Of a stretch of DNA of 64,000 nt, positions 1,884-47,296 are shown piece after piece. The stretch spans positions 57,258 to 121,257 of the forward strand of contig JBIQJB010000003.1 in the NCBI GenBank assembly GCA_044507735.1, written 5' to 3'. A program made the translations under genes and the position numbers. Each line of letters opens with the position of its first letter. Within the stretch, counting starts at the first letter, position 1. The notes under the pieces are model-generated. The model was not told the origin of the DNA, did not search any database, and saw only the letters and a program-made list of their open reading frames with translations. Source of the DNA: Nitrosopumilales archaeon (GTDB taxonomy: Archaea > Thermoproteota > Nitrososphaeria > Nitrososphaerales > Nitrososphaeraceae).

Positions 1884-2399
1884 CTACTTTATCTTTGACC
1901 TTTTGATCTTTTCCTGCAGCAACATGCAGCCCTGGATAAGCGTTTCAGGTCTTGGAGGACAGCCAGGCACGTACACGTCGACAGGCACAATGCCGTCAAC
2001 GCCTGGAAGCACATTGTATGAGTCGATGTAGAGACCGCCAGTAATGGCACATGCACCCATTGCAATCACGTACTTTGGCTCCGGCATCTGATCATAGACC
2101 ATCCTCAGCCTCGGGGCCATCTTTCTTGTCACTGTCCCTTGCACCACGATAAGGTCGCACTGACGCAGAGAGCCAAAGGCTTCTATGATGCCAAAGCGCT
2201 CGACATCATATCTTGGGCCAGAAGCGGCTCCAAACTCTACGCTACAGCAGGCAGTCTCAAGGTGCACAGGCCAGAGTGACCAGACCCTCCCCCAGTTTAT
2301 GGCATAGCCCAGCGGTGCGTCCAGCGCTCTAACCAGAATGTCGCTGAGCTTGCTCACCATCACGTTAAAGTTGGTGGGGCTGACGAGTTCTCTTTTCAA
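1884..2399 (-). CDS. nuoB: NADH-quinone oxidoreductase subunit B
   Basis: TACCSVE, MGACA..GG and PGCPPRPE motifs; start placed at TTG 2399 (ORF track extends to 2444). Confidence 0.95.
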   Translation of the reverse strand: MKRELVSPTNFNVMVSKLSDILVRALDAPLGYAINWGRVWSLWPVHLETACCSVEFGAASGPRYDVERFGIIEAFGSLRQCDLIVVQGTVTRKMAPRLRMVYDQMPEPKYVIAMGACAITGGLYIDSYNVLPGVDGIVPVDVYVPGCPPRPETLIQGCMLLQEKIKRSKIK

Positions 2400-2472
2400 T
2401 TGTGCCGGTCCTCCTCTCTTATTTCGTGTTGTTCTCCGCAGCATGAATATTTAATACTTGTTAGCGAAACCA

Positions 2473-18790: not shown

Positions 18791-18878
18791 TGGTGCGGGA
18801 GGAGGGATTTGAACCCTCGAACCCCTAAGGGATAAGAGCCTCAGTCTTACGCCTTTGGCCAAGCTGGGCGACTCCCGC
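18791..18878 (-). tRNA. tRNA-Leu (anticodon GAG), CCA encoded
   Basis: GCGGGAG acceptor stem, TAAGA-CTGAGGC-TCTTA anticodon arm, long variable arm, GGTTCAAATCC T-arm, 3' ACCA. Confidence 0.97.
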
Positions 18879-43695: not shown

Positions 43696-44607
43696 ATGAG
43701 AGTTGGTGTCGCAGGACTTGGGCTCATGGGTTCGGGCATTGCTACAAGATTGATCAGCACTGGCCACAAAGTATCTGTGTACAACCGGACAGCCTCAAAG
43801 GCGAGCAGGTTTTCAGGGAGCGCCACAGTGGCATCTAGCCCAAAAGAGCTTAGTGACAGCTGTGATCTTGTTATTACAGTTGTTACTGACTTTGCAGCAG
43901 TCAAGGAAATATTGTTGGGCAAGGGTAACAGCGGCATCATTGAAACCTCCAATCGCAGCGTAATTGTCGCTGACGCAAGCACGATATCCCCCGCCCAATC
44001 AGCCTATTGTGCGGCCGAATTGCGCAAAGCAGGGATTGAGATGCTTGGCATGCCAGTGATGGGAGGACCGGCTGCTGCCGAGACTGGCGACTTGGTGCCG
44101 ATGGTGGCAGGCAACAGGCAGGCGTTTGAAAAGTCAAGGCAGGTCATCGAAAAGCTCGGCAAGACCTTCTACATCGGAGACAGAGACGGGTCTGCAAACG
44201 CGATCAAACTTGCCATGAACCTGAACATTGCACTTGTCGCAAGCGCAGTGTCCGAAGGCATAATGCTCGCCAAAGGAGCAGGGATTGATCCATCGATATT
44301 TGTAGAGATTTTGAATTCAACTTACTTCAAGACAGGCCTGTCTGAAAAGAAAGGCCCCAAAATGGTCAAGAGCGATTTTGCGCCGTCGTTCTACCTAAGG
44401 AACATGCTAAAGGACTTGGAGCTTGCAACTGACACTGCGAGGTCATCTGGCATCACGCTGCCGCAGACTTCGCTAGCAGAACAGATATTTCGCGCTGCTA
44501 AGAATAGCGGCTTTTCTGAACAGGACTATACATCTATCTGTGGATTCTTGGCAAAGATAAACGGGATGGAAGGAATAGGAAATGATCAGGATAAACAAGC
44601 TGAATGA
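43696..44607 (+). CDS. NAD(P)-dependent beta-hydroxyacid dehydrogenase (3-hydroxyisobutyrate/tartronate semialdehyde family)
   Basis: GLGLMG, YNRT, PVMGG, KLAMN and KDL motifs. Confidence 0.9.
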   Translation: MRVGVAGLGLMGSGIATRLISTGHKVSVYNRTASKASRFSGSATVASSPKELSDSCDLVITVVTDFAAVKEILLGKGNSGIIETSNRSVIVADASTISPAQSAYCAAELRKAGIEMLGMPVMGGPAAAETGDLVPMVAGNRQAFEKSRQVIEKLGKTFYIGDRDGSANAIKLAMNLNIALVASAVSEGIMLAKGAGIDPSIFVEILNSTYFKTGLSEKKGPKMVKSDFAPSFYLRNMLKDLELATDTARSSGITLPQTSLAEQIFRAAKNSGFSEQDYTSICGFLAKINGMEGIGNDQDKQAE

Positions 44608-45307
44608 TGTCAAGGCTTCTGAATTTACTTTGCTTGCGTCGCTTCCCGACATGGGCAGAGTCGGCGGGCTAGTTTCCTCGTTCCTGTCGCATCATCTAAA
44701 AGCAGAACCCGTGGCAGAAATAGTTTCAAGTGATAAGCCGTGGGTCAGTTACGCCGACGGTGTCGTAAGGAGTGCAACTGACACTTACAAAATAGGCTAC
44801 GATAAGAGACACAAGTTGATGATATTCACTGGTGAGACGCAGCCCCAGGACCCTGGCTCGCTTCACAAGTTGTGCAATGTGCTGCTTGATTATGTTCAGT
44901 CGGTAGGAAAAGTTACAAGGCTTTATGGTGCTGGAGGGTACCTGCGCGAGCAGGTGACAGGCGCGCCAAGGGCATGTGGTGTTGTCAACAGGCCGGGGCT
45001 CAAGAAAGTGCTTGCAAAAGCTGGGATCGAGCTTGTGGGAAACGAGATAACGACCATAACATGGTTCAACGGCCTCATCCTTGGGCTAGCAGCAGAACGG
45101 AGAATTGATGCCATAGGGTTGTTTGGAGAGATAGCCGAGACAAACATGCCGCAGCCCCTGGCCGCAAAAACGATCATTTCTGCGTTTTCAAGACTGGAAA
45201 ATATACCGATAGACACCAAGCCTCTCGACAGGCAGTATGAGTCAATTCTTGAAGAGATCCAGAGCAGGAAAAATGGTCCATCAAAGTTCGGTCCCGGAAT
45301 AGGCTAG
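44582..45307 (+). CDS. PAC2 family proteasome assembly chaperone
   Basis: LPDMGRVG, GETQP, GGY and NGLILG motifs. Confidence 0.85.
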   Translation: MIRINKLNDVKASEFTLLASLPDMGRVGGLVSSFLSHHLKAEPVAEIVSSDKPWVSYADGVVRSATDTYKIGYDKRHKLMIFTGETQPQDPGSLHKLCNVLLDYVQSVGKVTRLYGAGGYLREQVTGAPRACGVVNRPGLKKVLAKAGIELVGNEITTITWFNGLILGLAAERRIDAIGLFGEIAETNMPQPLAAKTIISAFSRLENIPIDTKPLDRQYESILEEIQSRKNGPSKFGPGIG

Positions 45308-45311
45308 CAGG

Positions 45312-45490
45312 TCCCTGCAGACATCCTCCAAGCCCCGGGAGAGCTTCTGGGGTTTCCTGCCTATCACTACCAGGATCACGCAAGACCGCTGGACTGTGCC
45401 TGCTGTACGCTCTAGTTGCAGACACAGAGAAGAAAACCCCTGCTTGTCCCACAGCAACTGAAGGAGACAAGCGAGGCTCAGTCTGGGGGA
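45312..45490 (-). ncRNA. Candidate structured non-coding RNA, family unknown
   Basis: Closing stem plus four helices; each of the four has one non-Watson-Crick pair that is G-U on the minus strand. Confidence 0.55.
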
Positions 45491-45667
45491 GAAAAAAGAT
45501 CAGATCTTGAGATGGAAAGAGTTTGTAACTCCAACGAACGCATACGGGGGGGCAAAATTTTCCGCGCCTACACGCAATCGCAATGCGCTGTTGCCCGCAC
45601 GACAAAAAGGTTGTCATGCAAAGTCAGCATGGTTGGCGCAGCCGGGGATAGCCCATTTGAAGCGCTT

Positions 45668-46015
45668 TCAATGTATCGGCGCACCAACCGGTGCGTCCTC
45701 TGTCGTTGTCAGAAATAGAGGCTTACCCTCCGGCCCGTCAGCAGCTAATAGCATGCCTCTTGAAATAATGTTGCCGATCTTTTTTGGCTCGAGGTTGGTA
45801 CAAACGACCACGATCCGTCCAACAAACTCTTCCGGCTTGTAGTGCAGCGCTCCTCCCACCGCAACCTCCCTCTGCTCATTGCCAAGGTCCACAGTAGCCT
45901 TGAACACCTTCTTCATACCCGGTATTGCCTCAGCGTGGGTCACCTTGCCTACCCGGAGGTGAACTTTTGAAAACTCTTCAAACGTGATCAGATGCTCTGG
46001 AGCCGGCTCGCTCAT
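45668..46015 (-). CDS. tRNA-binding OB-fold protein (Trbp111/CsaA family)
   Basis: ITFEEF..V.LRVG, NLEPKK and SRGMLLA motifs. Confidence 0.92.
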   Translation of the reverse strand: MSEPAPEHLITFEEFSKVHLRVGKVTHAEAIPGMKKVFKATVDLGNEQREVAVGGALHYKPEEFVGRIVVVCTNLEPKKIGNIISRGMLLAADGPEGKPLFLTTTEDAPVGAPIH

Positions 46016-46432: not shown

Positions 46433-47296
46433 CTACTTGATCCTGTCGTACGGCTTCATCGCGTCCGGCAAGCTGTCGATCAGGTCGGTAGCGATCATGT
46501 GGAGGCCAGTGCGTTTGAACGCAATGCTGCCTGCTATGCCGTTGAGATATACAGCTGAGACTGCAGCATCGAAGGGTCTTTTCGTCCTTGCCAGCAGTCC
46601 TGCTGCAAGCCCCGAAAGAACATCACCCGTTCCGCCCACAGTCATTGCAGGAGTTGATCTCTTTATTGCAGCGGTTTGCTCGCCATCTGAAATCACATTC
46701 ATCCAGCCTTTGAGCGCTATTGTTATGCCATGTTCTTTTGCAGTCTTGTGCACGGTTGACACCATCTCTTCCTTTGTGGTTCCAGGATCGCTGCCAAATA
46801 GCCGCCGGTATTCCCCGGCGTGCGGCGTCACGATGCTTCCGGTCCCAGAGATATCCGTCAGCACCTGCGGTATGAGGGCCGATGCATCAAGCAATATCTT
46901 TGTGTCTGCTTCCTTTAGCTTGCCGACGAGCGCGGATATTGCTTCCGGCTTTAGCGTCATCCCCATGCCTATTGCTGCTGCATCAGCGCGTTTTGGCATC
47001 ATCGCAATCAGCCTGTTTGCCGATCCGACTGTCAGTTTGTCGTCGGGTAGCGGAAGAGCTATGAGCGCTGGAGAGAACGATCTGACTGCGGTTACTATTG
47101 ATCTGGGGACTGCGGTATAGACCAGATCGGATCCGGAGCGAAGAGCGGCCATCGACGCGAGCACCGGTGCGCCATGGTAGAAACGGCTTCCGCCTGCTAC
47201 CAGCACCACTCCGCTGTCTCCTTTTCTCGCCTGAAGCGAGCGCGGAGGCATGAACTCCCTTATCATCCTGTCTGTAACTGCGATTGCCGACGGCAA
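46433..47296 (-). CDS. nnrD: ADP/ATP-dependent NAD(P)H-hydrate dehydratase
   Basis: KGDSG..LVAGGS, TPHAGE and GGTGDVLSG motifs. Confidence 0.93.
   Translation of the reverse strand: MPSAIAVTDRMIREFMPPRSLQARKGDSGVVLVAGGSRFYHGAPVLASMAALRSGSDLVYTAVPRSIVTAVRSFSPALIALPLPDDKLTVGSANRLIAMMPKRADAAAIGMGMTLKPEAISALVGKLKEADTKILLDASALIPQVLTDISGTGSIVTPHAGEYRRLFGSDPGTTKEEMVSTVHKTAKEHGITIALKGWMNVISDGEQTAAIKRSTPAMTVGGTGDVLSGLAAGLLARTKRPFDAAVSAVYLNGIAGSIAFKRTGLHMIATDLIDSLPDAMKPYDRIK

Follow-up and report, generated by a model that had tools for sequence, protein, structure and literature searches.

Probable debris of two TnpB-element right ends beneath a predicted multi-helix RNA between convergent archaeal genes

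Gene context and the spacer

The window, as we term the whole 64,000-nt stretch of archaeal DNA that was analysed, includes two convergent genes for a PAC2-family protein and a tRNA-binding-domain protein, which are separated by a 360-nt spacer (Table 1). A first-pass annotation had delineated in this spacer an unassigned minus-strand RNA of about 180 nt, interpreted as a novel ncRNA, an orphan omega-RNA-like locus, or a MITE. The G+C content of this candidate region (56%) is high for a spacer. A 147-codon ORF spans the spacer; it is not kept in the relatives, and a Pfam search with it gave 0 matches.

Among the congeners the spacer between the two genes is a variable spot. The tRNA-binding protein was found in 51 of the 61 genomes searched, and the 13 fetched loci that contain both genes have spacers of 0, 0, 43, 44, 45, 328, 345, 359, 360 (the window itself), 484, 553, 847, and 917 nt. 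A small ORF with two hydrophobic segments (~90 codons, by eye), preceded by a TATA-like box, occupies the same spacer in loci L009 (651-1000), L010 (1014-1330), L013 (1700-2009), and L021 (1849-2176). The spacer of L006 (genome G058) contains a frameshifted remnant of a two-transmembrane ORF together with another ORF, and the spacer of L007 (genome G017) contains an ORF for a basic protein.

A block of ~60 nt directly 3' of the tRNA-binding-domain gene is present in the window (45570-45632, minus strand), in the metagenomic locus L070 described below (2513-2574), and in L084 (G058:C71:2544-2606). Positions 36-97 of the L070 spacer query are 83% identical to G058:C71:2544-2606 (E 2.6e-10), which exceeds the identity of ~69% at four-fold degenerate sites between G058 and G000, the genome of the window. 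This block contains a hairpin around a T5 run (window letters GCATGACAAC CTTTTT GTCGTGC) and possibly represents the terminator or 3' UTR of the tRNA-binding-domain gene.

Four of the 24 listed sequencing runs were examined, namely the RNA runs X18 and X19 and the DNA runs X13 and X16. Over the ~4 kb compared, contigs from both RNA runs were found at 46877-47123 only, with one more from X19 at 46460-46495, so that 45200-45700 is uncovered. The former is an identical 247-nt contig, present in two soil metatranscriptomes of separate studies with zero differences from the window, and is located inside an NAD(P)H-hydrate dehydratase gene. Contigs of run X13 span 45052-45552 without differences, and run X16 has no contig over 45168-45505.

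Table 1. Predicted features of the locus and copies of the related repeat family (positions are those of the window unless a contig or locus is given; G, genome; C, contig; L, locus)
Feature	Position	Strand	Basis and remarks
PAC2-family gene	44582..45307	+	Pfam PF09754, E 6.4e-28; flank
X-family 3' fragment, last ~40%	~45318..45430	-	nhmmer X profile; terminus ...GGAGGATGTC at 45327-45318
Terminal hairpin of X / B-type right end	45330..45346	-	family consensus CCCTTCAGGG; aligns to the hairpin before GAGAGGATGTC in X copies and B-type tnpB tails
A-type tnpB element 3'-end remnant	45431..45526	+	nhmmer tail profile; last codons overlapping the omega-RNA scaffold, and degraded right-end terminus
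A-type hairpin	45442..45472	+	intact copies have CTTGTCCG and CGGATAAG on either side of a variable loop; 9-tail consensus columns 69-74/101-106 and nhmmer alignment
Closing stem	45312-45322 / 45481-45490	-	RNAfold
CCUC/GAGG helix	45325-28 / 45473-76	-	RNAfold
Hairpin	45330-45346	-	RNAfold
Stem	45349-62 / 45428-40	-	RNAfold
Extra hairpin, absent from the first-pass list	45370-45392	-	RNAfold
Hairpin	45394-403 / 45418-27	-	RNAfold
Hairpin	45442-50 / 45464-72	-	RNAfold
Remaining spacer	45527..45667	-	3' of the tRNA-binding-domain gene; partly common to L070 and G058
tRNA-binding-domain gene	45668..46015	-	Pfam PF01588, E 2.8e-21; flank, convergent with the PAC2 gene
X copies in the genome of the window	G000 C52:50119-50457, C40:15398-15750, C8:1767-2116, C7:16732-17042		loci L098, L101
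X copies in other genomes	L097, L104 (G057); L096, L102, L106 (G058)		

Predicted fold and its significance

The minimum free energy structure computed by RNAfold for the minus strand of 45305-45500 has an energy of -79.7 kcal/mol and contains all helices that had been described for the candidate RNA. Its z-score is -2.31, with 2 of 200 shuffled sequences as stable (-2.05 in a repeat with 100 shuffles). The plus strand folds at -70.1 kcal/mol (z -1.94); the minus strand is therefore more stable by 9.6 kcal/mol, through G-U pairs, and a composition control mostly removed this strand preference, leaving little asymmetry. As controls we folded 150 windows of 196 nt, taken from both strands at 75 positions of its initial ~30 kb of sequence (window coordinates), and obtained z-scores at or below -2.31 for 4 and at or below -2.0 for 8 of them. 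The fold of the candidate region is unexceptional and no better than chance: since 4 of 150 arbitrary windows are equally well folded, the 64-kb window should hold at least a dozen such stretches.

Searches for known RNAs and direct copies

A search of the whole window with Rfam 15 at the gathering score identified a single RNA, a tRNA at 18794-18878 (tRNA-Leu according to ARAGORN), and none in the candidate region; a scan of 45100-45900 at E <= 10 likewise gave 0 matches, in agreement with the earlier description of the RNA as unassigned. RNase P or SRP RNA in disguise was rejected, as both RNAs are located elsewhere in the genome. The search for genomic copies that had been suggested as a check came out against a repeated element as such: a 201-nt query matched itself only in the 2.3-Mb genome, and the region is thus single-copy. 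A 381-nt query had 0 matches in 40 other genomes (24 of the same genus, 16 of other families), and a 211-nt query found nothing convincing in all 72 genomes of the genus. The genus tallies include six genomes flagged as unpublished (G009, G022, G041, G064, G068, and G071), from which no positive evidence derives.

Several short similarities were discarded. The best match of the 211-nt query, 25 nt in G080 (E 0.0026), sits in an unrelated coding 3' end and was judged to be due to chance, as was a 17-nt exact match of 45439-45455 (minus strand) in ~10 congeners, which falls inside a conserved OB-fold gene. The OB-fold loci in question are L045, L047-L053, L060, and L062 (16 nt in the last two), and their protein reads ...KVKLWDKQVG...; one frame of the candidate region encodes LWDKQ at the matching words. 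The spacer of L008 (G047), which ends in GGAAGGATGTC, resembles the region by eye; it was rejected as a homolog, with a Smith-Waterman score of 17 that was reached by 97 of 200 shuffles, 0 nhmmer matches at E <= 1, and a covariance model match of E 7.3 at a different position.

An orthologous spacer in a metagenome

A metagenome scan with the PAC2 protein yielded 14 loci, among them L070 and L071, whose flanking proteins are 93% (PAC2) and 96% (tRNA-binding protein) identical to those of the window. Their 386-nt spacer can be aligned with the spacer of the window; the match between the candidate region and L070 has a blastn E-value of 5e-12 and a Smith-Waterman score of 59, compared with a maximum of 27 in 100 shuffles. 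Judged from these alignments, L070/L071 is the orthologue of the candidate region, and the only clear one.

The region diverges at the neutral rate. The window and L070 are identical at 131 of 192 aligned bases of the RNA region (68%, with 27 gap columns) and at 116 of 163 four-fold degenerate sites of the two flanking genes (71%). The fold is lost in L070, for which z is +0.12 and 109 of 200 shuffles are as good. L070 preserves 25 of the 65 base pairs of the window fold without any change, a further 15 with a substitution on one side, and 4 through compensatory changes; it disrupts 18, and the remaining 3 coincide with alignment gaps. The 44 pairs that still form are somewhat more than we would have guessed for free drift. 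The hairpin at 45330-45346 persists through one-sided changes. The consensus structure of the two sequences reaches -30.45 kcal/mol, as opposed to -79.7 kcal/mol for the window alone, and coincides with the originally described structure only in its 3' hairpin and its 4 outermost pairs; a three-sequence consensus with G047 added incurs a covariation penalty.

The plus-strand part: a tail of A-type tnpB elements

When the genus was searched with the L070 spacer, matches appeared in 6 of 72 genomes, in several of them in multiple copies. These matches are 3' ends of tnpB genes, in the tnpB sense, with the arrangement ...GGATAAGCAAGTTTCAGTCGAGGAAGCAAGAAGC-hairpin-GTAGTTCAC; we refer to them as A-type, a label of our own for elements whose intact copies end in ...GTGGGTAGTTCAC. 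An nhmmer profile of 8 intact tnpB tails matched 45417-45512 of the window (plus strand; E 2e-4), or with 15.7 bits and E 0.0059 when the whole genome was searched, and matched L070 at 2347-2462 (plus strand; E 2e-12), where GAGTAGTTC is still readable. In place of the intact terminus TAGTTCAC, L070 has GAGTAGTTCGC and the window has GAGTTTGTAAC at 45518-45529, the latter being placed by synteny alone. The A-type assignment of the window piece leans on the orthology with L070.

The covariance model R1, built from 9 A-type tails with 39 pairs, of which 5 show compensatory changes, found L070 with 21.4 bits (E 0.0011; E-values of this model are rough). Its match to the window at 45382-45526 scored 8.5 bits (E 1.9), fourth among the 8 matches listed and amid chance matches. 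According to this model, the A-type scaffold is degraded in the window copy and its consensus structure is not kept. The A-type hairpin has a plus-strand G-U pair in 6 of 9 intact copies and AU in the other 3. This bears on the earlier argument that A-C mismatches on the plus strand which become G-U pairs on the minus strand reflect selection on RNA structure: several such pairs do exist, but given the plus-strand G-U of the intact copies, the minus-strand G-U in the hairpin 45442-45472 of the window is a sign of decay rather than of selection. The conserved A-type hairpin has a constant stem and a loop that ranges from 4 nt to ~25 nt owing to short repeats resembling ACAACGAC (L085, L087, and L090 versus L088 and L091).

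As had been noted for the window, no tnpB gene accompanies the region, the neighbours being the PAC2-family and tRNA-binding-domain genes. The genome contains five matches to PF07282, on contigs C23, C1, C19, C12, and C17, and none on C10, the contig of the window. All three tnpB genes with a long open frame end in TAGTTCAC, not in GGATGTC; for instance, the A-type gene on C1 has an open frame of 415 codons with OrfB_IS605, TNB, and HTH domains. Two tnpA genes are also present, so IS200/IS605 elements may still be able to move in this genome.

The minus-strand part: the X repeat family and B-type right ends

Part of L070 matched further loci of G058, which revealed a family of dispersed repeats that we label X. 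Its members are ~340-400 nt long, lack ORFs, have unrelated neighbours, and end in ...CCCTTCAGGGTTGAGAGGATGTCAG; they have a 5' hairpin, located around GGATGAATCGCC, as well as conserved blocks and variable inserts. The family is present in at least 5 of 72 congeners, and the genome of the window itself has four copies that are full length or nearly so, along with partial matches. A 5S rRNA gene (73.7 bits) is located at L102:1017-1136 (G058:C80), ~370 nt from an X copy. Neither intact X copies nor tnpB tails have a relevant match in Rfam.

A profile of 6 X copies, all from other genomes, aligned with 45454-45320 of the window (minus strand) at profile positions 221-361 of 363, with E 2e-5 genome-wide and 7e-7 in a second search, and with L070 at 2372-2243 (minus strand) with E 1.3e-19. 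The window copy lacks ~24 internal nt of the profile that L070 keeps. It is a truncated fragment and not a full-length element; its inner limit near 45430 is our reading of a drop in alignment confidence. A comparison of orthologous X copies on G000 C40 and G058 C155 gave 150 of 195 identical positions over the locally alignable part, and 61 of 89 four-fold sites are identical in the neighbouring gene; X copies thus likewise seem to be near neutral. Thirteen X tails aligned poorly, and their consensus fold (-3.3 kcal/mol) was too weak for use.

Of the 72 genomes, 9 contain the X terminus motif, with 20 occurrences in total and 0 for the reversed control; the motif closes the tnpB 3' tail in loci L122 and L126 of G057 and L113 of G084, which constitute the B-type. 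The ORFs of L122 and L126 carry OrfB_IS605 and Cas12f1-like TNB domains, and the two loci share 86% identity across the 1416 nt that end with GGATGTCAG. X and the B-type elements have just the last 35 nt in common, at 80-94% identity. No match to the X left end was found by blastn in B-type or A-type loci, a search that short hairpin-only left ends would escape. A derivation of X from the tnpA elements on C21 and C34 was rejected, as they share no motifs with X. The genome of the window showed no long-frame tnpB of the B-type. Contig C12 (L068) carries a 137-codon tnpB fragment and C17:254655 (L119) a solo right end, whose common scaffold resembles the B-type tail by eye.

A composite of two fragments

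The profile matches identify both pieces as homologs of TnpB-element ends. This homology is detectable solely by profiles and the L070 bridge: of the comparisons with tnpB 3' ends that had been recommended, blastn-short against the tnpB tails of the genome was uninformative (best match a 10-nt word, E 0.46), and the tail and X profiles gave the E-values of 2e-4 and 2e-5 reported above. Because positions 45417-45454 are covered by both profile alignments, the joint of the fragments can be placed to within about ±10 nt only. With respect to this joint, the helix 45394-403 / 45418-27 falls inside the X part, and three others (the closing stem, the CCUC/GAGG helix, and 45349-62 / 45428-40) each have one strand in the X part and the other in the A part. 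Similarity between the X and A tails is not significant, since for the window pieces 27 of 500 shuffles reached the same score, and the pairings that close the junction would therefore be fortuitous. The idea that the fold is a palindrome of two related right ends was rejected on the same grounds and because only one 10-nt inverted repeat was found.

We consider it very likely that the candidate region is mobile-element debris, composed of two 5'-truncated IS200/IS605-type (TnpB) right-end fragments lying back to back between convergent genes, and with similarly high confidence we regard it as inert. The minus-strand piece would be the last ~40% of an X element, the terminal 35 nt of which form the right end of a TnpB family of the congeners, and the plus-strand piece would be the tail of a second TnpB family with intact copies in this genome. 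A deletion presumably took out the inner parts of both elements and left a remnant that would now be functionless, in which the junction-closing helices are probably chance pairings across the joint and two hairpins (45330-45346 and 45442-45472) are probably inherited relics of the parental right-end or omega-RNA hairpins. The suggestion of an orphan omega-RNA-like locus or IS200/IS605 right end was therefore well aimed insofar as the hairpin followed by GGAGGATGTC is a terminus common to TnpB elements of the congeners; it missed the second TnpB tail on the plus strand, the 5' truncation of both pieces, and the tnpB genes elsewhere in the genome. The MITE suggestion captured the membership of the minus-strand piece in a dispersed ORF-less family, but this copy is truncated and the composite exists once.

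Alternative explanations

The stable predicted fold (z -2.31), the 9.6 kcal/mol by which G-U pairs favour the minus strand, and the high G+C content would fit a new structured ncRNA that is specific to this lineage and encoded on that strand. We find it extremely unlikely: the control windows fold as well in 4 of 150 cases, the DNA search of 71 congeners found it absent, L070 drifts neutrally and loses the fold (z +0.12; consensus -30.45 versus -79.7 kcal/mol), and the helices of the junction join parts of a chimera whose two source elements are unrelated and lie on opposite strands. A small chance, which we put very low, is left for an orphan guide RNA that still works. In that case the X-type fragment would be expressed from the minus strand, a TnpB from another locus would take up its RNA in trans, and the guide position would fall on the flank that runs antisense to the PAC2 stop region. 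Protein-less IS200/IS605 derivatives are said in many cases to encode omega-RNAs on which TnpB has to act in trans, as in passages of PMC10055086, tnpB genes are available in the genome, and the right-end terminus and its hairpin are retained; against this, just profile positions 221-361 of 363 are left, with an internal deletion of ~24 nt, the drift is at the neutral rate, all three long-frame tnpB genes of the genome end in TAGTTCAC and not in GGATGTC, and no TATA-like box was noticed upstream when the sequence was read by eye. It is also highly improbable, in our estimate, that X elements at large are protein-less guide-RNA genes, kept where the right ends of the genome's own long-ORF tnpB genes differ and used in trans or domesticated, in which case the fragment described here would represent one such gene close to extinction, or else exert weak antisense control over PAC2.

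The location between convergent genes could instead point to a cis-acting piece of the neighbouring transcripts that either forms a structure in a 3' UTR or guards against read-through. On the minus strand, the region is preceded by a T6 run (45487-45492) and followed by a T5 run inside the PAC2 gene, and the plus-strand spacer has no T5 run, so PAC2 transcripts may read through. We regard this as very unlikely given that spacers of just 0 to 45 nt suffice in congeners (5 of the 13 loci with both genes) and that neither sequence nor fold is conserved above the neutral rate. Finally, the region might be a decayed remnant of the gene for a protein with two transmembrane segments that other congeners have in this spacer, an origin that fits the ORF at the same place in L009, L010, L013, and L021, the frameshifted remnant in L006, and the coding-like G+C content. 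Alignments of the window, L070, and G047 with 5 such genes were no better than those of shuffled sequences (29 to 198 of 200 as high), although the positive controls of the local alignment were clear (127 versus 28 and 44 versus 24), and better-supported sources exist for both halves; we consider this origin almost certainly wrong.

Significance and comparison with known systems

The interpretation as two right-end fragments eliminates a spurious candidate for a new class of RNA and illustrates that a neat multi-helix fold between convergent genes can come from two back-to-back relics of transposon ends. The region itself matched nothing in 71 congeners, and a less-decayed metagenomic orthologue alone exposed its origin. 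For the annotation of this archaeal genus, the gain consists of two types of TnpB right end and one ORF-less repeat family; a wider biological question would be touched only if the X family were a working guide-RNA family.

TnpB uses a single long omega-RNA, as described in PMC10097598. The candidate region is comparable to the omega-RNA region of IS200/IS605 tnpB elements in that both fragments are homologous to the last ~100-135 nt of elements in which a hairpin precedes a defined right end. The tnpB ORF of intact A-type copies extends into this region, whose consensus fold includes some compensatory changes, whereas the candidate region has no adjacent tnpB, both of its pieces are 5'-truncated, and the covariance model misses the window copy. 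What is shared with MITEs is a short, non-coding, dispersed sequence that is able to fold back; however, inverted repeats are not a feature of IS200/IS605 ends, the composite exists as a single copy, and its closing stem, which looks like a terminal inverted repeat, pairs two unrelated fragments. Palindrome-associated transposable elements (PATEs) are protein-less derivatives of IS200/IS605, and one PATE-like element of 271 nt combines 28 nt of left end with the final 58 nt of tnpB and a right end, according to passages of PMC7290912 and PMC10055086. Although the search for a left end of X that matches a tnpB element was negative and the window carries an X fragment fused to a fragment of another element, X resembles PATEs in being ORF-less, ~340-400 nt long, and multi-copy, with its last 35 nt corresponding to a TnpB right end.
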